Below, piece by piece: positions 1-9,732 of a stretch of DNA of 9,732 bases. Position 1 is the stretch's first letter, and each line of letters begins with the position of its first letter. Source of the stretch: a virus. Taxonomy: Duplodnaviria > Heunggongvirae > Uroviricota > Caudoviricetes. A program made the position numbers and the translations under genes. Under the pieces are notes generated by a model, which saw nothing but the letters and a program-made list of their open reading frames with translations, had not been told where the DNA came from and made no database searches. The stretch lies in the IMG/VR virus record IMGVR_UViG_2671180415_000013, one strand, 5' to 3'.

Positions 1-91
1 GCTGTCGTTCTCAAAATCGGTGGAGCTGCATGACAAAGTCATCGGGCATTATCTGAACATAAAACACTATCAATAAGTTGGAGTCATTACC
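1..91 (+). mobile_element. IS1 right-end fragment (3' terminus with right inverted repeat at about 69-91); the window starts inside the element
   Basis: Positions 69-91 (atcaataagttggagtcattacc) match the IS1 right terminal repeat as I recall it, and are an imperfect inverse of the left repeat at 9643-9665. The preceding reading frame ends with the InsB C-terminus. Recognition is from memory, not a search. Confidence 0.8.
2..76 (+). CDS. insB: IS1 transposase InsB, C-terminal fragment (5' end lies outside the window)
   Basis: Frame 2 translates to ...LSFSKSVELHDKVIGHYLNIKHYQ followed by TAA at 74-76, which matches the InsB C-terminus as I remember it. The fragment is too short to appear in the ORF track. 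Confidence 0.7.
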   Translation: MSFSKSVELHDKVIGHYLNIKHYQ

Positions 92-1032: not shown

Positions 1033-1323
1033 TTAACTGTTTTTGCCTGGATACTGTCTTCGAGAATGCACAATATTTACTACTTCTATGCTTGATGCTG
1101 TTACTCGGTAAAGGATGATGTAGTTAGGATGAGTTACAATTTCACGAAGACCAAGAACTCGCTCGCTTGGAGGATACAGGTAAGGATGCTCTGTGAGCGG
1201 CAAAACGGATGTTTCAATTCGAATTTTCATTCTGCGTGCTGCCGCGGGATTTTCTTTAGCTATGTAGGCTACGATCTGGCGCAAATCATCACGAGCAGAT
1301 GGTAGCCATAAAACGGGTAACAT
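1033..1323 (-). CDS. parE: Type II toxin-antitoxin toxin, ParE/RelE family (96 aa)
   Basis: Translation MLPVLWLPSARDDLRQIVAYIAKENPAAARRM...LREIVTHPNYIILYRV...IEVVNIVHSRRQYP has the size and conserved pattern of ParE toxins. Its ATG (1321-1323) overlaps the stop of the upstream antitoxin ORF by 1 nt (TAATG). Confidence 0.85.
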   Translation of the reverse strand: MLPVLWLPSARDDLRQIVAYIAKENPAAARRMKIRIETSVLPLTEHPYLYPPSERVLGLREIVTHPNYIILYRVTASSIEVVNIVHSRRQYPGKNS

Positions 1324-1517
1324 TATTCACCTCTGTGAGTTGCAGCAGCAATTTGGGCAATAATTTGTTCCATTTCCGCCATTACCTCATCATGCGGAAT
1401 CGCCGGGCGGGGATCCGCGAGGCTTGCTGCTACTTTGGCCCGCAGCCATTCGTTGTAACTATTTTCTTGCTCAACTGTCTCAAATTCTGAAACCATTGGG
1501 GAAAGGACTGTACTCAT
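1323..1517 (-). CDS. paaA: Antitoxin, PaaA2-like small acidic antitoxin partner of ParE (64 aa)
   Basis: The 64-aa product MSTVLSPMVSEFETVEQENSYNEWLRAKVAASLADPRPAIPHDEVMAEMEQII... sits immediately upstream of, and is translationally coupled to, the ParE gene. SD GAGGAG lies 9 nt upstream of the ATG. It resembles the PaaA2 antitoxin of E. coli O157 prophage paaR-paaA-parE modules as I recall them. Confidence 0.7.
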   Translation of the reverse strand: MSTVLSPMVSEFETVEQENSYNEWLRAKVAASLADPRPAIPHDEVMAEMEQIIAQIAAATHRGE

Positions 1518-1536: not shown

Positions 1537-2037
1537 TTAGGCGCGACGGCCTTTTTGTGCAGCTAACCACCGCGCAACCGTACGATCCATTGATTCTTTT
1601 TTATCTTTCATCTCCTGAAGCATGTGTTCTTGATCTTCTTTCGGAAAAGCTCTGAACGTATGGATTAAATCTCGTTCCATCGGCTCTACGGCAAACGGTA
1701 GTTCATCCTCTGTTTGTTCTGTGTCTGCTGGTAATGCGACTATGTTATCTTGCTGTGGTTCTCGACAATACATCCTTGCAATTTGCAGCAAATCTACCAT
1801 GTCTGGCCTGATTGACTCAGGGGGAACTTTCAGTAAGCCAGCAAACTTTAGAACAGCCTCAAGGTTTAGTGGGGTTTGACCATTTAGGTAGTGACTTACC
1901 GCCCCTTGTGTTGAAAACCCCATAATTTCCGCCGCACGTTCCTGAGTCAATCCCAACTGAGATTTCTTTGCCATCCAGATTTCTTTCAGTCTTCTGGCGG
2001 CGTTGAGGTCGGTGTCTGACAATGATTTTCTTTTCAT
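1537..2037 (-). CDS. paaR: Prophage repressor with a lambda cI-like N-terminal HTH domain and no LexA/S24 peptidase domain (PaaR2-like), about 166 aa
   Basis: The N-terminus MKRKSLSDTDLNAARRLKEIWMAKKSQLGLTQERAAEIMGFSTQGAVSHYLNGQ... aligns by eye with the lambda cI N-terminus (...[47 protein letters not shown]...). The C-terminal ~85 aa are acidic and too short for an S24 domain. The tracked ORF extends to a GTG at 2067; I prefer the ATG at 2035-2037 from the cI alignment, but the start is uncertain. It is first in the operon with the antitoxin and toxin. Confidence 0.8.
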   Translation of the reverse strand: MKRKSLSDTDLNAARRLKEIWMAKKSQLGLTQERAAEIMGFSTQGAVSHYLNGQTPLNLEAVLKFAGLLKVPPESIRPDMVDLLQIARMYCREPQQDNIVALPADTEQTEDELPFAVEPMERDLIHTFRAFPKEDQEHMLQEMKDKKESMDRTVARWLAAQKGRRA

Positions 2038-2148
2038 ACATCCAATTCTAATAAGATTGCTAATCACTTTGAAATAGTATCACTATTTACTTTTAAAAAT
2101 AACAGTGCTATTAATTATGCATTGGTAACACATCACATAGGGCGGATT
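2038..2148. promoter_or_regulatory. Divergent immunity control region (PRM/PR-like) with operator palindromes
   Basis: Perfect 17-bp palindrome AAATAGTatcACTATTT at 2072-2088, and a related degenerate site at 2097-2115. A candidate rightward promoter is TTTACT (2086-2091), 17-nt spacer, TATTAA (2109-2114), overlapped by both sites. It lies between the leftward repressor gene and the rightward cro-like gene. Confidence 0.6.
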
Positions 2149-2412
2149 ATGAATCTTGGAGAATATTTGCATCATTTTCATATAACCCAGAGTTCATTTG
2201 CTGAGATTGTTGGCGCATCCCAAGGGATGGTCAGCCACGTTATAACGGGGCGTGCAAAACTTACAGGAGAAAAAATATTACGTTGGTGTGAAGCAACGGG
2301 ATGGGTGGTGACCCCACATGAGATTGACAGTAAAACCTACCCCAACCCAACTGACGGCTTGCCTGCTGAGTTTCAGGCTAACACACAACCATCGGCGGGG
2401 GTTGATTCATGA
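2149..2412 (+). CDS. Cro-like HTH regulator (YdaS-like), about 87 aa
   Basis: MNLGEYLHHFHITQSSFAEIVGASQGMVSHVITGRAKLTGEKI... is a small HTH protein transcribed divergently from the repressor. The tracked ORF starts at a TTG at 2122; I prefer the ATG at 2149, preceded by agggcgg. Its TGA stop overlaps the ATG of the next gene (ATGA at 2409-2412). Confidence 0.7.
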   Translation: MNLGEYLHHFHITQSSFAEIVGASQGMVSHVITGRAKLTGEKILRWCEATGWVVTPHEIDSKTYPNPTDGLPAEFQANTQPSAGVDS

Positions 2413-2834
2413 AAATCAAGCATGAACACATCCGCATGGCGATGAAAGCCTGGGCGCATCCGGACGGTGAAAAAGTTCCGGCAGCTGAAATAACCAGGGT
2501 TTATTTCGAACTGGGAATGACGTTTCCGGTTCTGCATAACGACAGCAAGCACAACACGCTTTATCTCAACACCCAAAAGATTTTCCGTTGGCTGGATAAA
2601 GACACCCCTGACGCTGTTGAAAAAATTCAGGCGTTGTTACCTGCGATCGAAAGGGCAATGCCACCTCCGCTGGTGGCTCGAATGCGCAGCCACAGTTCAG
2701 CTTATTTTCGGGAACTGGTGGAGACGCATGAACGACTGGTGAGAGACGCTGATGATTTTGTCGCAGTGGCAATCGCCGGTTTCAATCAGATGAACCGTGG
2801 TGGCCCGGCAGGAAATGCTGTGGCAGTACATTGA
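2409..2834 (+). CDS. YdaT-like protein (CII functional analogue in Rac-type prophages), 141 aa
   Basis: The N-terminus MKIKHEHI... and the ~140-aa size match my recollection of Rac YdaT. It sits directly after the cro-like gene with an ATGA overlap. Family assignment is from memory. Confidence 0.65.
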   Translation: MKIKHEHIRMAMKAWAHPDGEKVPAAEITRVYFELGMTFPVLHNDSKHNTLYLNTQKIFRWLDKDTPDAVEKIQALLPAIERAMPPPLVARMRSHSSAYFRELVETHERLVRDADDFVAVAIAGFNQMNRGGPAGNAVAVH

Positions 2835-2905
2835 CTGACAATAGCCATATCGAATCGCTCCCGGCAACTCGTGAGTAAAAAGATTCGGTATCAGAAGAGG
2901 TGAGT

Positions 2906-3970
2906 ATGGCTAACGCCTGGCTCAGATTATGGCATGACATGCCAAATGACCCTAAGTGGCGAACAATTGCCAGGGTGTCAGGGCAGCCAATTGCAACAGT
3001 GATGGCAGTGTATATCCACCTCCTGGTGAGCGCGTCACGAAATGTCACGCGAGGTCACATTGATGTCACGACAGAAGATTTGGCAAGTGCGCTCGACGTG
3101 ACAGAAGAGGTAATTGATTCAATTTTGCAGACGATGCAGGGGCGGGTACTTGATGGTGATTTAATCACTGGATGGGAAAAACGCCAGGTGCTTAAAGAGG
3201 ACAACGGCAATATTTCGCAAACCGCAAAATCTCCTGCAGAGCGCAAGAGGGCGCAGCGAGAGAGGGAAAGAAAGCGGGAACAAAATGGCGATTGTCACGG
3301 CGCGTCACGAAATGTCACGCACATGTCACGACGAGTCACGACAGATACAGATAAAGATACAGATAAAGAAGATCAAAACACTATGGTCCATGGCGTAAAA
3401 AACGCCACGAACCAGGCAGGGGATGTTCAGACCGTCAATCCTGGTCAGCCAGCAGGCTCGACACCGGAAGCCGATTCAGCGTATGCGCTGAAAGCCGATT
3501 CGGGCGCTGTGCAGCAGGTGATGACCGCAAGGCCGGAGCAATCACTCCAACTGCAGCAGCCTGAAGCCGATTCCGCCATTCAGCGGGAAGCCGATCGGGT
3601 AGCCCCGGAAAACACCGGGCAGCCTGTGGGACGAGTGGATTATCCGGATGTGTTCGAACAGGTCTGGCGGGAATACCCGTTGCGTGCCGGGGCAAACCCG
3701 AAGAAATCCGCATTCAGTGCCTGGAAGGCCAGATTGCGCGAGGGGGTGCCACCAGAGACCATGCTGGATGGTGTGAGGCGTTACGCGAGATACCTGGCGG
3801 CGACCGGGAAAGCGGGAACGGAATTTGTTCAGCGAGCGACGACGTTTTTTGGGCCGGACCGGAATTTTGAAAACCCCTGGTTGCTCCCGGTAAGCGGCAC
3901 GAACAACCAGCGTTGTGTGAATCATATTTCTGAACCGGATACCGAAATTCCGCCGGGATTCAGGGGGTGA
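2906..3970 (+). CDS. Phage replication initiator (lambda O-like / replisome organiser) with internal origin iterons, about 354 aa
   Basis: The N-terminus MANAWLRLWHDMPNDPKWRTIARVSGQPIATVMAVYIHLL is typical of enterobacterial prophage replication proteins. The gene contains the phased GTCACG repeats and lies immediately upstream of the DnaC-like gene. SD AGAGG precedes the ATG at 2906; the tracked ORF begins at a GTG at 2900. Confidence 0.7.
   Translation: MANAWLRLWHDMPNDPKWRTIARVSGQPIATVMAVYIHLLVSASRNVTRGHIDVTTEDLASALDVTEEVIDSILQTMQGRVLDGDLITGWEKRQVLKEDNGNISQTAKSPAERKRAQRERERKREQNGDCHGASRNVTHMSRRVTTDTDKDTDKEDQNTMVHGVKNATNQAGDVQTVNPGQPAGSTPEADSAYALKADSGAVQQVMTARPEQSLQLQQPEADSAIQREADRVAPENTGQPVGRVDYPDVFEQVWREYPLRAGANPKKSAFSAWKARLREGVPPETMLDGVRRYARYLAATGKAGTEFVQRATTFFGPDRNFENPWLLPVSGTNNQRCVNHISEPDTEIPPGFRG
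3031..3070. repeat. Iteron cluster 1 (four GTCACG/GTCACA hexamers at about 10-11-bp phasing), putative origin element
   Basis: GTCACG at 3033, 3043 and 3065, and GTCACA at 3054. The 20-mer cgcgtcacgaaatgtcacgc at 3031-3050 is repeated exactly at 3301-3320. Confidence 0.6.
3291..3367. repeat. Iteron cluster 2 (five GTCACG hexamers at 9-11-bp phasing) followed by an AT-rich tandem 12-mer; putative ori core
   Basis: GTCACG at 3294, 3303, 3313, 3324 and 3334. The 12-mer gatacagataaa is tandemly duplicated at 3344-3355 and 3356-3367, giving an AT-rich stretch next to the iterons, as in lambda ori within the O gene. Confidence 0.6.
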
Positions 3971-3976
3971 TGTGGC

Positions 3977-4725
3977 ATGAAAAACATTGCGGCAGCCGGG
4001 GTTCTTGAACGTATTCACAGNNNNNNNNNNNNNNNNNNNNNNNNNNNNNNNNNNNNNNNNNNNNNNNNNNNNNNNNNNNNNNNNNNNNNNNNNNNNNNNN
4101 NNNNNNNNNNNNNNNNNNNNNNNNNNNNNNNNNNNNNNNNNNNNNNNNNNNNNNNNNNNNNNNNNNNNNNNNNNNNNNNNNNNNNNNNNNNNNNNNNNNN
4201 NNNNNNNNNNNNNNNNNNNNNNNNNNNNNNNNNNNNNNNNNNNNNNNNNNNNNNNNNNNNNNNNNNNNNNNNNNNNNNNNNNNNNNNNNTGTGTTCAGCG
4301 GTAAAACCGGCACCGGGAAAAATCACCTTGCAGCGGCGATGGGTAACCGGCTGATGGCGAAGGGGCGCAGCGTGATTATCGTCACCGAGTCTGATGTCAT
4401 GAGCGTGTTGCATGACAGCTACGACAACGGCAAATCCGGTGAAAAATTTTTACAGGAGCTTTGCGGGGTTGATTTGCTGGTCCTGGATGAAATAGGCATT
4501 CAGCGGGAGACGAAAAACGAGCAGGTGGTATTGCACCAGATAATTGATCGCCGGACAGCATCACTGTGCAGTGTCGGGATGTTAACAAACCTGAATCATG
4601 CCGCAATGAGCACGCTTCTTGGTGAGAGGATTATGGACCGCATGACCATGAACGGTTGTCGGTGGGTGACGTTTAACTGGGATAGCTGGCGTTCAAATGT
4701 CAGCTTTCCGGGAGTTGTGAAGTAA
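3977..4725 (+). CDS. dnaC: DnaC-like helicase loader (AAA+ ATPase), interrupted by an N-run
   Basis: The N-terminus starts MKN like E. coli DnaC. After the gap, FSGKTGTGKNHLAAAMGNRLMAKGRSV...LLVLDEIGIQRETKNEQVVLHQIIDRR...GMLTNLNHAAMSTLLGERIMDRM...WVTFNWDSWRS closely matches DnaC Walker A/B and C-terminal motifs as I recall them. SD GGGGGTGAT precedes the ATG at 3977, and the O-like stop is at 3968-3970. The two sides of the gap are in different frames, so the N-run length is not the true length. Confidence 0.85.
4021..4289. other. Run of 269 N (assembly gap or masked segment) inside the DnaC-like gene
   Basis: Literal n characters in the sequence. Confidence 0.99.
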
Positions 4726-4746
4726 TTTTTGTTGGAGGATGTTTTA

Positions 4747-5472
4747 ATGGAAACTGTATTTGACGCACTGAAAGCACTGAAAAGAGCCTCTTCACATGTG
4801 GTGGCGTCCCGCCTTGGAATCAGCCGTGAAGATGCGGTCAACGAACTGTGGAAACTGAAGCGCCGTGGTGAAGCGGATAACAAGGGTTCGATGTGGTGGC
4901 TGATTCAGGCTGGTGAAAGTGAACCAGTGTCACCGGTACCGAAAGTGACAGCGCAAATGCTGACTGAGGCGATTGAACAACATGGCCCACAAACGGCGGA
5001 TGAGCTGGCACTGATGTTCGGGATTACCTCCCGCCGGGCGAATTCATCGCTGGCCATGGCAATCAGCAAAGGGCGTCTGATTCGCGTGAATCAGGGCGGT
5101 AAATTTCGGTACTGCATACCGGGCGCTGATTTACCGGCAGAGCCGAAAGCCGCATCCATAGCGGAAACGGATGGTAAAGTCTTTCCTCAGCCAGCAGGTG
5201 TTGCGTTACCGGTACAGGAAGCTGCAACACAGGAAGAAATTAAAACAGAAACTGTGGCGGACATTGTGCAGTCGTTGCCATCGTTCACCGAAACGCAAGC
5301 GGATGACCTGGTTTTACCATCGCTGCATATGGCAAACCGCGAACTGCGTCGGGCGAAAAGTCATGTCCAGAAGTGGGAGCGTGTCTGCGCCGCGTTGCGG
5401 GAGCTGAACAAGCACCGGGATATTGTTCGACAGATTGTCGATTCCTCCGGTCGTATTGTGTCGGAAAAGTGA
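4747..5472 (+). CDS. hypothetical protein with two tandem helix-turn-helix-like modules and a C-terminal charged/helical tail (about 241 aa)
   Basis: ORF track 4729..5472. I prefer the ATG at 4747, with GGAGGAT 8 nt upstream. Two similar segments (...[23 protein letters not shown]... and ...[29 protein letters not shown]...) suggest duplicated DNA-binding modules. Family not recognised. Confidence 0.55.
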
Positions 5473-5487
5473 TTGCCGGGGGCGCTT

Positions 5488-5892
5488 ATGGCAAAAGTAT
5501 TTACACAGGAAGAGCGGGAAAAAATTAAGGGGCAGGTTGTTGAACTCGTACGCCAGAGTGGGCGCGAGACGTTACGACAACTGGAAGCTAAAANNNNNNN
5601 NNNNNNNNNNNNNNNNNNNNNNNNNNNNNNNNNNNNNNNNNNNNNNNNNNNNNNNNNNNNNNNNNNNNNNNNNNNNNNNNNNNNNNNNNNNNNNNNNNNN
5701 NNNNNNNNNNNNNNNNNNNNNNNNNNNNNNNNNNNNNNNNNNNNNNNNNNNNNNNNNNNNNNNNNNNNNNNNNNNNNNNNNNNNNNNNNNNNNNNNNNNN
5801 NNNNNNNNNNNNNNNNNNNNNNNNNNNNNNNNNNNNNNNNNNNNNNNNNNNNNNNNNNNNNNNNNNNNNNNNNNNNAGTGCCGGAAGAGTGA
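5488..5892 (+). CDS. hypothetical protein whose interior is lost in an N-run (N-terminus MAKVFTQEEREKIKGQVVELVRQSGRETLRQLEAK...)
   Basis: ATG at 5488 follows a G-rich stretch. The frame appears continuous across the N-run to a TGA at 5890-5892 only if the N-run length is exact, which is unknown. Product unknown. Confidence 0.35.
   Translation: MAKVFTQEEREKIKGQVVELVRQSGRETLRQLEAKXXXXXXXXXXXXXXXXXXXXXXXXXXXXXXXXXXXXXXXXXXXXXXXXXXXXXXXXXXXXXXXXXXXXXXXXXXXXXXXXXXXXXXXXXXXXXXXVPEE
5594..5876. other. Run of 283 N (assembly gap or masked segment)
   Basis: Literal n characters in the sequence. Confidence 0.99.
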
Positions 5893-6007
5893 AGTTATGC
5901 AGCGTGTACCGGCTTTCTATCAGGGTGATTTTCAGGAGGCGGTACTGTGAGTGAAATTAGCTATCAGGCTTCAATTACCGCTGGCATTCGCATCAAAGGA
6001 GAGGAGC

Positions 6008-6364
6008 ATGGAAATAAAACCAGAAGATGAGTTAAGCAATATTGTTTTATTTCCGGTAAAAGAGGATAACCCTCGTAATCAGGTTAATTTTCTTTATGAG
6101 CCATCGGAAAGACCATATTGCCATCACGCTTCTGTCCGGGTTGACGAAAAAGAGCGTCAGGTCCGCTGTAAAATTTGCGGTGCAGTTGTGGAGCCATTTG
6201 ACTGGATGCTCTCTGTGGCGAAAAGAGAAACCAGACTGGCAGATGATGTAAGGCTCTTGCGCCAGGAGGAGCGGGAAAGGCGAAAAAATATAGAAAAGCT
6301 AATCCAGATTGAGCGTAATGCGAAAGCGCGGATACGCAGGGTGACAAAATATAGCCCCGAATAA
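6008..6364 (+). CDS. hypothetical small protein with a putative zinc-ribbon (C-x-HH ... C-x2-C) and a basic coiled-coil C-terminus (about 118 aa)
   Basis: Strong SD AAAGGAGAGGAGC lies immediately upstream of the ATG at 6008; the tracked ORF starts at a GTG at 5951. Motif PYCHHASVRVDEKERQVRCKICG, then an R/E/K-rich helical tail. Family not recognised. Confidence 0.55.
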   Translation: MEIKPEDELSNIVLFPVKEDNPRNQVNFLYEPSERPYCHHASVRVDEKERQVRCKICGAVVEPFDWMLSVAKRETRLADDVRLLRQEERERRKNIEKLIQIERNAKARIRRVTKYSPE

Positions 6365-6578
6365 TCAAGGTTATTTCTGGAAGTCAAGTCGTGAGTGATG
6401 AGGACTAACAAATACGGTGAACTCGATAAAGAGATTCAGGACGAACTGGAGGCCAGGAATGATTGACAAATCACCAAGTGAGTTCAGCTACAAAGATTTA
6501 TTGTCATAACGGGTTATGAGATCGACTTGGTGCGTGATATTCTTCGGGCCAGTTTGCTATGCGCCACCATGAGATGTT

Positions 6579-8411
6579 ATGGCCCGCATGTTTGATACAT
6601 TAGGATTTTACATTATGAATGTGCAACATTTTGATTTTTTTACAGATAATGAGTTTTCTAATCTGGAAAGATATCAAACTTGTAAAGCCATGGCCAAAGG
6701 TTATGCGGGCAATTACAAAACCGGGCAGTCAAGGTTGATGCATGCCCGCTCATACTGCTTCAGCATCGTAGCTGCATATTGGGATACCCTTGCAAAAAAG
6801 CAAAAAAGCAGCATTAAAATGAGGGCAGTACCGCACACTGTTTACATAGAAGACATTCCATGTGATGCACGCGAGCTCGCTGAACGAACAGGTGAGCTTA
6901 TTGCTCAATTTCCGGCGGAGGACGCTGGATATCTGATTGGGTCAATTTATACGGTAATGCTGCCATCCGCTTACCGTTCGGAATTGGGGGCTTACTATAC
7001 CCCCCCACCTTTGGTAGCGCGTCTCTTGGACCTGGCTGAAAAGTCTGGTGTTGATTTTTCTCATGCATCGGTTATTGATCCTGCGTGTGGTGGCGGTGCA
7101 TTTTTGGCACCAGTAGCCATTCGAATGTTAAAAAAAGACAAGGGGTCTTCCCCTGAATGGATGTTGAGGAGAATCAGTCGTCGTTTAAAGGGGATAGAGA
7201 TCGATCCATTTGCGGCTTGGATGAGTTTGGTATTGCTCGAATCTGTACTAATGCCACTATGTGTAAAGGTAAAACGTAGATTGCCTGAAGATACAATTAT
7301 TGTTGCTGATGCGCTTCAGCAAGATAAATTTTCTGGTTATGATCTTGTGGTAGGGAATCCGCCTTACGGACGTGTCACTCTCGATATTAAAACGAGAGAA
7401 AAATATTCTCGTTCGTTATTTGGTCATGCAAATCTATATGGATTGTTCACCGACTTAGCTGTTCGCATGGTTAAAGAGAAAACAGGAGTTATTGCATTTC
7501 TTACGCCAACTTCTTTTCTTGGTGGGCAGTATTTCACCGCGCTGCGAACCCTTTTGACCGAAAAAACTACTCCGTATGCCCTTGATTTCGTCACTGACAG
7601 GGATGGGGTCTTTGACGATGTTCTCCAGGAAACAATGTTGACAGCATTCAAGGCGGGAGAACATAAAGTTCGGGCCCAGGTATCCTCACTTGTCCCTAAG
7701 GGGTTGAACAAAGCAAAAATTGAGAAAATAGGTAATGTTGATATAGAAAAAGGTGGAGCAACGTGGCTTTTGCCACGCGTTAAAGATGATGCCTGTTTTC
7801 TTAATGTATTAAAACAGATGTCTACGCGTTTAGCTGATCTGGGATACTCAGTCTCTACAGGTCAGTTAGTCTGGAATCGATTTAAGTCGCAGTTGCGTAC
7901 GACGAAAGGAAAAAATAGCTACCCATTAGTCTGGGCGGAATCAATAACTTCAGCTGGTTTTCGTTTTAGTGCAGACAGAAAAAATCATGTTCCCTATATC
8001 GATATAACCCCACAACAGGGTTTCCTTGTGACAAAATCTGAATGTGTGCTTGTTCAGCGGACAACATCGAAGGAACAGGACAGAAGGATTTTAGCGGCAA
8101 TTTTACCTCAGGGATTTATAGATGAAACTGGTGGCGTAGTAGTTGAAAACCATATTAATATTGTATATTCAAACGGATTGTTCTCTGCGGTTCGCCCTGA
8201 TGTTATTGATATGCTACTTAATTCGCATGTTGTCGATCGGGCGTTCAGGTGTATAAGCGGAAGTGTTGCTGTTTCGGCCTATGAATTGCATTCAATCCCG
8301 TTGCCTTCTCTGGAGCAGGTGATGGAGATTCAATCGTTAATTGATGCTGGCGTCCACAGACGGATTATTGAGAGAACTATCGCTGGTTTCTATGGAGTGA
8401 TGATTGCATGA
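6579..8411 (+). CDS. N6-adenine DNA methyltransferase, gamma-class (Eco57I/TaqI-like N6_Mtase fold) with a C-terminal target-recognition region
   Basis: Motif order X then I then IV: GAYYTPPPLVARLL (motif X), VIDPACGGGAFLAP (AdoMet-binding motif I), DLVVGNPPYGRV (catalytic NPPY motif IV), followed by about 300 aa of putative TRD. The start is uncertain among ATGs at 6579, 6588 and 6615. The TGA stop overlaps the ATG of the next gene (ATGA at 8408-8411). Confidence 0.9.
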   Translation: MARMFDTLGFYIMNVQHFDFFTDNEFSNLERYQTCKAMAKGYAGNYKTGQSRLMHARSYCFSIVAAYWDTLAKKQKSSIKMRAVPHTVYIEDIPCDARELAERTGELIAQFPAEDAGYLIGSIYTVMLPSAYRSELGAYYTPPPLVARLLDLAEKSGVDFSHASVIDPACGGGAFLAPVAIRMLKKDKGSSPEWMLRRISRRLKGIEIDPFAAWMSLVLLESVLMPLCVKVKRRLPEDTIIVADALQQDKFSGYDLVVGNPPYGRVTLDIKTREKYSRSLFGHANLYGLFTDLAVRMVKEKTGVIAFLTPTSFLGGQYFTALRTLLTEKTTPYALDFVTDRDGVFDDVLQETMLTAFKAGEHKVRAQVSSLVPKGLNKAKIEKIGNVDIEKGGATWLLPRVKDDACFLNVLKQMSTRLADLGYSVSTGQLVWNRFKSQLRTTKGKNSYPLVWAESITSAGFRFSADRKNHVPYIDITPQQGFLVTKSECVLVQRTTSKEQDRRILAAILPQGFIDETGGVVVENHINIVYSNGLFSAVRPDVIDMLLNSHVVDRAFRCISGSVAVSAYELHSIPLPSLEQVMEIQSLIDAGVHRRIIERTIAGFYGVMIA

Positions 8412-9490
8412 ATCTGCCTGTTGTTCCCCCATTGAATGTTATCCGGGAAAGATTACAATTAATTTTCCCTGAAGGGACTGAGAATCGTGGATATTTAATT
8501 CGGGAAATAGCTGCAAAAACAATTTTTGTCATGTTTTATGCTGGTGCGGTTGAGGGGCTGGGGCGATGGATAAGGCCCAGCCAGGTTGTAAGTATGGGAG
8601 ATTCGCAGGCTGCTCTTACTGATGATGCGTCCAGAGAAAGCTGGGTAAAGATGACTTTCTCTAAACAAAAGATAAGGCCTGCTGATGCATGGTATGCGGA
8701 AAATACGCGTGAGCCAATACGTGATGAAACTATAAAAAATGGCCTAATACCTTGCAATGCAATTGTTGAGCGTAAAGGTATACCCACCACATCCTCTCGT
8801 CCTCGTTACAGTTTGAATCGCTCTTTTGCAGCACTCTTTGATGCCGGGCTTGAAGGAGATTCGCTGCTGAGTGCAATAAGTTCCTGGCAAGAAAATCATT
8901 TGAACAAAGCCGCTCTTGCTAGGTTGCGTTTATTGAAATCAGGGGCAGTGATTGCTGCTGATGCCGTAGTCGTCACTTTCCCAAATGGAGAGAAGAGAAC
9001 TTTAGCTCCGGGCCCGTCAAGTACAATAGCTAAGGCCGTCATCGAAGTTTTTGCTCCTAATTTTCTTAAGAATCCAACTGTGCTCTGGTTGTCTGAATCC
9101 GGGAATAAAGTTGTTGCTCAGGATGATGTATTGGCAAAAGCATTGGGGCTGAATATTGATGCCTCAAAAGCACTTCCAGATATTATTTTGATTGATTTGG
9201 GAGAGGACCGAACGGGTTCGGACATGCTTGTAGTTTTCACTGAAGTAGTTGCGACAGATGGGCCTATAAACAGGGAACGAAAAGTTACTCTCACTCATTT
9301 GGCTATTGACGCTGGGTTCAGCGAGAAAAATCTTGCATTCCTTACGGCATTTATGGACAGAAGTGCTCTGCCTTTTAAAAAGGCAATACCAGAATTGGCG
9401 TGGGGATCTTATGCATGGTTTGCTTCTGAACCGGAGCACTTAATTGATCTTCGGGATGGTTATCCGGTAAAGATCAGCCAGAGAAAATGA
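8408..9490 (+). CDS. Uncharacterised 360-aa protein translationally coupled to the methyltransferase; candidate cognate restriction endonuclease (possibly BsuBI/PstI-like), unverified
   Basis: Confident as a gene: long ORF, same strand, 4-nt overlap with the MTase stop, GGAG 10 nt upstream, same AT-richer composition as the MTase. The function is inferred only from context; I cannot point to a canonical PD-(D/E)xK motif by eye. The segment DIILIDLGEDRTGSDMLVVFTEVVATDG is a possible degenerate nuclease core. Confidence 0.6.
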   Translation: MNLPVVPPLNVIRERLQLIFPEGTENRGYLIREIAAKTIFVMFYAGAVEGLGRWIRPSQVVSMGDSQAALTDDASRESWVKMTFSKQKIRPADAWYAENTREPIRDETIKNGLIPCNAIVERKGIPTTSSRPRYSLNRSFAALFDAGLEGDSLLSAISSWQENHLNKAALARLRLLKSGAVIAADAVVVTFPNGEKRTLAPGPSSTIAKAVIEVFAPNFLKNPTVLWLSESGNKVVAQDDVLAKALGLNIDASKALPDIILIDLGEDRTGSDMLVVFTEVVATDGPINRERKVTLTHLAIDAGFSEKNLAFLTAFMDRSALPFKKAIPELAWGSYAWFASEPEHLIDLRDGYPVKISQRK

Positions 9491-9642
9491 CCAAAGTTTG
9501 ATATCCGCCACGCCCTGAAGGATGGGGGTTTTACGGTGCACTGGATAAAAAATCGGTTTCATAGATTTGCCCACCGTGGTATACGCCTGCGATAAAAACT
9601 TTATTGTCATCAACGGCAAAAGCAATAATTGTTCTGTGGCGG

Positions 9643-9732
9643 GGTGATGCTGCCAACTTACTGATTTAGTGTATGATGGTGTTTTTGAGGTGCTCCAGTG
9701 GCTTCTGTTTCTATCAGCTGTCCCTCCTGTTC
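9643..9732 (+). mobile_element. IS1 left-end fragment (left inverted repeat 9643-9665 and start of insA); the window ends inside the element
   Basis: GGTGATGCTGCCAACTTACTGAT at 9643-9665 matches the IS1 left terminal repeat as I recall it. It is followed by tttagtgtatgatggtgtttttgaggtgctccaGTGgcttctgtttctatcagctgtccctcctg, which encodes the InsA N-terminus. Confidence 0.85.
9698..9732 (+). CDS. insA: IS1 InsA N-terminal fragment (3' end lies outside the window)
   Basis: GTG at 9698, then ASVSISCPSC..., the InsA zinc-finger N-terminus. Confidence 0.75.
   Translation, partial: MASVSISCPSC

Follow-up and report, generated by a model that had tools for sequence, protein, structure and literature searches.

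The genes between the helicase loader and the methyltransferase

We analyzed a 9,732-nucleotide (nt) stretch of DNA from the tailed-phage record IMGVR_UViG_2671180415_000013 (Caudoviricetes), referred to throughout as the window, and in particular the three open reading frames (ORFs) at positions 4747-6364, which we call genes 1, 2 and 3. A sequence-only reading of the window had placed three same-strand ORFs between a helicase loader (3977-4725) and a methyltransferase (6579-8411), at the position that in lambdoid phages is the ren/nin region with its accessory genes. Both statements were borne out, the operon being the early-right one. We believe, with a probability of roughly 0.8, that the segment represents what follows the replication genes ("ren/nin") in the early-right operon of a lambdoid prophage of the Rac/Qin type, now reduced to an IS1-bounded remnant, that it holds three independently assorting accessory genes, and that the restriction-modification (R-M) genes behind them are a moron that does not need them. 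The features concerned are listed below, with expectation values given as E.

3977-4725, plus strand: DnaC/IstB-like helicase loader of the YdaV type, last gene of the replication module (Pfam IstB_IS21, E=3e-19 for the unmasked copy)
4747-5472, plus strand: gene 1, DUF1627/YdaW family, 241 amino acids
5488-5950, plus strand: gene 2, DUF977/LygF, by sequence a long-form Ren homologue, really 140 amino acids
6008-6364, plus strand: gene 3, 118 amino acids, predicted zinc ribbon and long basic helix, phrog_1621
6365-6578: intergenic stretch holding the mosaic junction
6579-8411, plus strand: N6-adenine methyltransferase (Pfam Eco57I/N6_Mtase, PADLOC)
8408-9490, plus strand: BsuBI/PstI-family restriction endonuclease (Pfam, PADLOC)

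The window is masked by two runs of N, one in the interior of the loader (4021-4289, 269 N in place of 267 nt) and one in gene 2 (5594-5876, 283 N in place of 243 nt). Neither run preserves length and reading frames across them are therefore unreliable, a lesson that applies generally to this data set. We recovered the unmasked sequence from complete chromosomes by looking up the exact gene 3 protein; the loci so retrieved (L032-L039) are 99.9-100% identical to the window when the N-runs are excluded. Both masked genes are intact in unmasked genomes. In L032 the loader (5012-5758) encodes 248 amino acids, and genes 1 and 3 agree with independent gene calls at 5780-6505 and 7001-7357. Unmasked gene 2 is an intact 423-nt ORF of 140 codons that starts at 5488. 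Past the N-run, and as far as 5950, the sequence encodes ...CRKSEVMQRVPAFYQGDFQEAVL, the C-terminus that family members have in common; the true C-terminus of the protein, ...ECRKSEVMQRVPAFYQGDFQEAVL, thus extends to 5950. Gene 2 had earlier been given as 5488-5892 with an N-run at 5594-5876; the start and the run stand, while the end was wrong because the stop at 5890-5892 belongs to a frame that the N-run brings about. A real frameshift in gene 2 was also considered and rejected as an artefact of N-run length. Resequencing of 5594-5876, which had been proposed, is needless because the unmasked sequence is public.

Comparison with homologues of 82-95% identity indicates purifying selection on all three genes, with ratios of nonsynonymous to synonymous substitution (dN/dS) of 0.24-0.28 for gene 1, 0.13-0.25 for gene 2 and 0.09-0.13 for gene 3. 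With values between 0.09 and 0.28 throughout, these are real coding genes. The gaps that separate loader, gene 1, gene 2 and gene 3 are 21, 15 and 57 nt, and each of the three genes is preceded by a Shine-Dalgarno-like motif, for example GGAGG about 8 nt 5' of the gene 1 ATG and AGGAGAGGAG ahead of the gene 3 ATG. A scan of 4500-6800 for promoters and terminators detected no promoter and no terminator on the plus strand. Given this tight same-strand packing, the ribosome-binding motifs and the lack of a detected terminator, genes 1-3 and the replication genes should be transcribed together upon inactivation of the adjacent repressor (1537-2067).

Gene 2 is a long-form relative of lambda Ren

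None of the three proteins had been recognised from the letters alone, and for two of them this no longer holds, as gene 1 belongs to Pfam DUF1627/YdaW and gene 2 to DUF977/LygF and, together with Ren, to phrog_142. Gene 2 is thereby assigned to Ren, one of the known prophage functions that the sequence-only reading had set against its own proposal.

The unmasked gene 2 protein matches Pfam PF06163 (DUF977) over its full length with 105.9 bits (cutoff 22.1), and the 36 N-terminal residues legible in the window score 28 bits by themselves. Homologues are called LygF in phage records; gene 2 is a full-length, stand-alone member of this family, whereas elsewhere the domain is fused to Fic. Two homologues, 91% (L001) and 75% identical to gene 2, match phrog_142, annotated as "Ren-like exclusion protein", from end to end (E=3e-47 and 3e-44), and so does lambda Ren (E=1.6e-41). 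When gene 2 and lambda Ren are compared directly, they share a C-terminal motif, ECRKSxxMQRVxAFY (BLASTP E=9e-7, hhalign E=1e-5), which reads NLVFKECRQSAAMKRVLAVY in Ren and NIICRECRKSEVMQRVPAFY in gene 2. Both proteins begin with a domain of the winged helix-turn-helix (wHTH) type, and Kinch et al. 2009 (PMC2686095) identified DUF977 as a winged helix. Their positions also correspond, in that ren directly follows P in lambda and gene 2 follows the loader with gene 1 in between. On the strength of the phrog_142 membership, the C-terminal motif, the N-terminal wHTH and the position, we conclude that gene 2 is, as judged by sequence and gene order, a homologue of lambda Ren in a long form. A PADLOC search with the 91%-identical L001 homologue standing in for gene 2 gave no match.

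Gene 1 is a full-length member of the YdaW family

Gene 1 matches Pfam PF07789 (DUF1627) with 309.2 bits against a cutoff of 28.1 (E=6e-93, profile positions 1-155) and phrog_630 with E=2e-121. Its homologues in RefSeq are annotated as "DUF1627 domain-containing protein". By tblastn the protein is 80% identical to ydaW of phage Rac, and it lies after a ydaV-type loader as in Rac-like prophages. The ydaW gene is listed in the literature as a predicted transcription factor. The K-12 allele is shorter than, and structurally unlike, the allele of other strains (PMC9308461); gene 1, by contrast, is full length.

The sequence-only reading had seen duplicated helix-turn-helix-like modules in gene 1, and structure prediction bears this out. 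The AlphaFold2 model (m1fc78baa2697), built from a shallow alignment with a mean predicted local distance difference test (pLDDT) score of 62, contains two three-helix winged-helix units at residues 4-39 (first wHTH about 4-50) and 69-123, the second of which has a pLDDT above 80. Next come a linker (131-182) that is disordered and acidic, with a net charge of -7, and, at the C-terminus, a basic helical hairpin (182-239). Foldseek, one of the checks that had been recommended, returned the tandem-wHTH proteins ScpB and AlkX/YcaQ and many ArsR/MarR wHTHs as top matches at E of 5e-3 to 9e-2 and nothing at E≤0.001. A profile search of the gene 1 alignment against PDB sequences yielded only coiled-coil or designed-repeat noise. 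We also considered genes 1 and 2 as paralogues and rejected this, as the hhalign comparison of DUF1627 with DUF977 (E=0.057) reflects generic wHTH similarity only.

The overall plan of gene 1 resembles that of Gp05 from phage Phi24B in the model of Donaldson 2021 (PMC8614690), which combines a wHTH, a flexible linker rich in Pro, Val and Gln (PVQ repeat) and a basic C-terminal coiled coil. Gp05 differs in having a single wHTH and in sitting in the exo-xis region, and Phi24B is absent among the tblastn matches to gene 1, so that the likeness is one of layout, without shown homology.

As to function, Rac ydaW was one of the prophage genes whose overexpression blocked the retron-Sen2 toxin RcaT in a screen (bioRxiv 10.1101/2020.06.22.160242). 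For gene 1 this single screen-level result, carried over from the Rac protein, is a hint of possible counter-defence activity. Against PADLOC, gene 1 gave one marginal match (SWIM_XIII, E=0.0099) with no stretch passing alone.

Gene 3 belongs to a large family of predicted zinc-ribbon proteins

Gene 3 matches phrog_1621, which has no assigned function, over residues 1-115 (E=1.1e-54). In Pfam nothing exceeds threshold, the best score being 21.6 bits for Zn_Ribbon_TF (PF08271) against a cutoff of 29. A C-x-HH...C-x2-C motif had been noted in this protein. Among 39 homologues of down to 44% identity, the putative zinc ligands C38, H40, C54 and C57 are invariant, and the second histidine of the motif, H39, is not conserved. 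Also invariant in this set are F15-P16, within the acidic and poorly ordered N-terminus, and most of the helix segment LR.EE..RR.NIEKLIQIERNAKARIR; a near-invariant LIQIERNAKARIR segment lies on the long basic helix. A profile search of 1.84 billion representative proteins returned 1653 clusters (50% identity, E≤1e-3), which retain the same zinc ligands and an ERNAKAR core, and homologues are spread across the Enterobacterales. A scan of viral contigs with gene 3 alignment A2 found only relatives at least 96% identical.

The AlphaFold2 model (m67d768ce8597, mean pLDDT 76.6) starts with a poorly ordered acidic stretch, continues with a zinc ribbon in the form of a small beta-hairpin and ends in one helix. 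The basic tail that had been described as helical is in this model a single helix of 53 residues (63-115, isoelectric point 10.5) with pLDDT above 90 over most of its length. The model suggests that gene 3 may oligomerise as a coiled coil and bind with its basic end.

Searches for a characterised relative were negative. The model matched nothing in PDB or BFVD at E≤0.001 by Foldseek, and the profile search of its alignment against PDB sequences again gave only coiled-coil or designed-repeat noise. When ten longer distant relatives were scanned with Pfam for fused domains, only Zn_Ribbon_TF and DUF6118 appeared, both below threshold. Gene 3 had no PADLOC match, none of genes 1-3 had an NCBIfam match, and a literature search on the PHROG identifiers gave nothing relevant. 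The closest resemblances are to the TFIIB-type zinc ribbon, the best Pfam and Foldseek match (21.6 bits; 1pft, E=0.43), with all scores below threshold, and to the lambda Orf73/TraR-type regulators, which like gene 3 are small early phage proteins with helices and one zinc site. We regard both as resemblance only, since the ligands of gene 3 are C-x-H...C-x2-C and not C4, the domain order is different and there is no DxxDxA.

Two further observations concern the neighbors of gene 3. The protein database holds fusion ORFs that join an Ea22-like protein or DUF977 to gene 3 (P0006, P0043, P0039, P0041), and in one viral contig (L041, 137-3954) gene 3 is preceded by two copies of a DnaC-like/DUF977 block.

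The three genes assort independently

We determined the prevalence of each gene by megablast against 5426 complete E. coli genomes, with the following results. The any-match count of the R-M block is uninformative because the IS1 end of that query matches 4963 genomes.

Gene 1: 2396 genomes with any match, 809 at at least 80% coverage
Gene 2: 4051 genomes with any match, 3891 at at least 80% coverage
Gene 3: 1679 genomes with any match, 1671 at at least 80% coverage
R-M block: any-match count not informative, 2 genomes at at least 80% coverage

Neighborhoods were read from 80 viral contigs with close copies of gene 3, 63 of which are informative upstream and 61 downstream. DUF977 lies upstream at 58 of the 63 loci and DUF1627 at 32; downstream, DUF7167 follows at 47 of the 61 loci and R-M genes at 3. 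The common prophage order is replication genes, (DUF1627), DUF977, (DUF4406, Ea22-like), gene 3, DUF7167 and, further on, DUF968 and RusA. At 24 genome loci from other genera, where identity to gene 3 is 39-93%, the homologue is part of a nin region, next to NinB, RusA or DUF968 and downstream of O/P or a DnaC-like gene, and none of these 24 loci has DUF1627 or an R-M system. Gene 3 can also occur elsewhere, as in the Shiga toxin (Stx) phage ArgO145, where it follows an Ea22-like gene in the early-left exo-xis region. Genes 1 and 2, for their part, go along with the replication module, for example in Shigella phage 75/02 Stx, where a DnaC-like gene is followed by a DUF1627 gene (44% identity to gene 1) and then by a "Ren-like exclusion protein".

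From these differing prevalences and neighborhoods we conclude that genes 1-3 assort independently and do not form a unit. The earlier question of whether the genes travel with the methyltransferase or with the replication module is thus answered in favor of the replication module for genes 1 and 2, and no link to the R-M genes was found. The proposal that the three genes regulate the methyltransferase operon is not supported by the same data, as they occur in 2396, 4051 and 1679 genomes versus 2 for the R-M block, and R-M genes are present at 0 of 24 diverse gene 3 loci.

The restriction-modification genes are a recent insertion

The cassette at 6579-9490 had been described as a methyltransferase pair; it is in fact one methyltransferase and one BsuBI/PstI-family endonuclease that overlap by start and stop codon (ATGA). 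The endonuclease matches Pfam BsuBI_PstI_RE (PF06616, E=9e-45) and the corresponding N domain (PF17728, E=1e-30), and PADLOC assigns the pair to MTase_II (E=4e-300) and REase_II (E=3e-128). CTGCAG, counted as a clue to the specificity of the pair, occurs at 2 sites with 2.06 expected, which points neither way.

In blastn comparisons (L001-L004), similarity of the window to prophages without the R-M genes ends at 6368-6379, just past the gene 3 stop codon. The window is 99.6% identical to E. coli FDAARGOS_943 over 5877-9642 and 98.9% identical to strain VL7S7 over 5978-9642. Both E. coli loci with the R-M genes, L003 and L004, lack DUF1627. Twenty-five viral contigs carry the R-M pair, with gene 3 upstream in only the five whose endonuclease is at least 99% identical. 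The other 20, with endonucleases of 61-91% identity, have no gene 3 relative at a hidden Markov model (HMM) E≤0.01; some of them are unrelated P4-like elements, and others are lambdoid, with the R-M genes after different wHTH or Ren-like genes that follow P. The junction just after gene 3, together with the R-M contigs that lack gene 3, indicates that the R-M genes are a recent moron insertion into the nin region. On this sequence evidence the R-M genes and the adjoining ParDE-type module, which is cut by IS1 here, are best described as a recent moron that was later spread by recombination along with its left neighbor.

Within this cassette, the methyltransferase ORF is split and the endonuclease ORF intact in two of the complete chromosomes (L034 7608-9403, L037 7572-9402). 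The split could reflect a sequencing error or an endonuclease that is inactive or tolerated. An R-M system carried by a prophage should be expressed under repression, yet the scan of the spacer gave no promoter.

What the three genes may do

In the reading that we favor, a nin region with three independent accessory genes followed by an unrelated moron, the genes would work as follows. The Ren-like gene 2 product would act at the replication proteins of the phage or close to them, and would keep early phage replication from triggering Rex-type abortive-infection exclusion by resident prophages. Gene 1 would dimerise through its C-terminal hairpin and, with the two wHTH units, bind DNA or a protein partner, possibly in counter-defence. 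Gene 3 may oligomerise as a coiled coil and, early in infection, bind nucleic acid or a conserved protein of the host with its conserved basic end. A role of genes 1-3 in defence or anti-defence is a weak lead, drawn by analogy from lambda Ren versus Rex and from YdaW blocking a retron toxin.

Several observations count against this account. With 140 amino acids versus 96 in Ren, gene 2 is longer by some 45 residues, which separate the wHTH from the C-terminal motif, and so falls outside the size and architecture of the Ren family (about 96 amino acids, a wHTH and a short C-terminal tail), and direct pairwise similarity of the two proteins is confined to the C-terminal motif. Pfam places gene 2 in DUF977, whereas Ren itself matches no Pfam family. 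The Ren-versus-Rex exclusion phenotype goes back to classical genetics, reportedly that of Toothman and Herskowitz in 1980, and we know of no established mechanism for Ren itself. The YdaW retron result was obtained with the truncated K-12 allele under overexpression. Gene 3 showed no structural or sequence link to a characterised protein in the Foldseek and PDB profile searches. As for the R-M genes, all genomes that have a copy at least 99% identical carry gene 3 directly upstream of it, the block that L004 shares with the window starts 30 nt before the gene 3 ATG, and no sigma-70 consensus promoter for the R-M genes was found in the 214-nt spacer (6365-6578). The constant adjacency and the L004 boundary leave room for a local functional link in that lineage.

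The first alternative is that genes 1 and 2 are replication accessory proteins, for example in origin binding or in modulation of O, DnaC or DnaB, and have no part in counter-defence. DUF977 directly follows the loader or P gene in most loci (58/63), the order DnaC-like, DUF1627, Ren-like is kept at 44% identity, both gene products are basic wHTH proteins and iteron-like arrays lie nearby in the replisome-organiser gene. In lambda, ren is transcribed from PR with O and P and has been called "likely involved in DNA replication" (Thomason et al., bioRxiv 10.1101/2021.04.19.439022). But Ren is dispensable for lambda growth (PMC10695390), DUF1627 is missing from about half of otherwise similar prophages, both genes pair with different replication modules (YdaU/YdaV, DnaT-like/P and lambda O types) and no binding sites were identified. 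We therefore hold this alternative to be unlikely, if still worth keeping in mind.

The second alternative, that genes 1-3 jointly form a dedicated early anti-defence island which disarms host or prophage immunity, is a less probable one. Lambda Ren is said, from classical genetics, to counter Rex exclusion, and gene 3 moves between nin and exo-xis, two early accessory hot spots. Two-hybrid interactions of Ren with Rex proteins have been reported (bioRxiv 10.1101/2021.04.19.439022), and there is the block of the retron-Sen2 toxin by overexpressed K-12 ydaW described above. Against a common island stands the independent assortment of the genes, which are not a unit. PADLOC gave only the marginal SWIM_XIII match of gene 1, no other family points to defence, and for gene 3 nothing supports such a role. 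A more speculative version, in which gene 3 represents a new class of early phage effector, maybe acting in counter-defence or host takeover, and the post-replication slot would then be an anti-defence island with Ren-like and YdaW-like genes, we find doubtful.

The weakest alternative, that genes 1-3 or gene 3 alone serve the downstream R-M genes as endonuclease-delaying controllers or as restriction-alleviation factors protecting phage DNA, is highly improbable: besides the adjacency, the L004 boundary and the spacer in which no promoter was detected, it can draw on the zinc ribbon of gene 3, a feature that the Lar restriction-alleviation family is said to have, but among 5426 E. coli genomes 1679 have gene 3 and 2 have the R-M genes, DUF7167 takes the place of the R-M genes after gene 3 in 47 of 61 close loci, none of the 24 diverse gene 3 loci has them, all 20 contigs with a 61-91% identical endonuclease lack a gene 3 relative at HMM E≤0.01, similarity to R-M-free prophages stops at the gene 3 stop codon, neither E. 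coli R-M locus has DUF1627, and gene 3 has neither an HTH of the C-protein type nor a Pfam Lar match at E≤0.1. Two specific candidates were rejected on such grounds. Gene 3 or gene 1 as the R-M controller (C) protein, a small Xre-type HTH protein, fails because gene 3 has no HTH and is missing from 20 of 25 R-M loci and because gene 1 is absent from L003 and L004; gene 3 as a Lar/Ral-like factor fails for want of a Pfam Lar match at the same threshold.

Returning to the reading of an accessory nin region with a moron behind it, the segment is an ordinary catalogued prophage mosaic found in thousands of public genomes under existing families. Its interest lies in two of the genes. The DUF977/LygF proteins can be read as long-form Ren homologues, which suggests a testable function, namely escape from Rex-type exclusion, for a gene to which about 75% of complete E. 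coli genomes have a match. The gene 3 family is large, strongly conserved and without a Pfam model, and would be a reasonable target for anti-defence or host-takeover screens.

The surrounding prophage remnant

IS1 terminal sequence is present at both ends of the window (1-91 and 9642-9732), which makes the whole element a prophage remnant bounded by IS1. The domains encoded by its neighbors in complete chromosomes are those of mannitol dehydrogenase, YdfZ, a GntR-type regulator and a short-chain dehydrogenase. A look-up found the exact gene 3 protein in 2191 blocks of the assembly collection, most of them on 5-10 kb contigs, and by the source names of near-identical gene 3 proteins the remnant-bearing genomes are apparently Shigella sonnei. 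Judged by its ORFs and Pfam matches, the window is a lambdoid early region, with these features in addition to those given above:

1033-1517, minus strand: ParE/PaaA2 toxin-antitoxin pair beside the repressor (Pfam)
1537-2067, minus strand: cI-like repressor
2122-2412, plus strand: cro-like gene
2409-2834, plus strand: YdaT/CII-like gene (ydaT)
2900-3970, plus strand: replisome organiser
9531-9642, minus strand: second RelE/ParE toxin gene, cut by IS1, with its ParD antitoxin lost

An Rfam search of the whole window gave no match. The replisome-organiser gene contains, at 3034-3072, 3294-3342 and 3343-3366, arrays of GTCACG-containing repeats with a spacing of about 10 nt and a tandem pair of AGATACAGATAA. 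These repeats look like origin iterons, as in lambda O.

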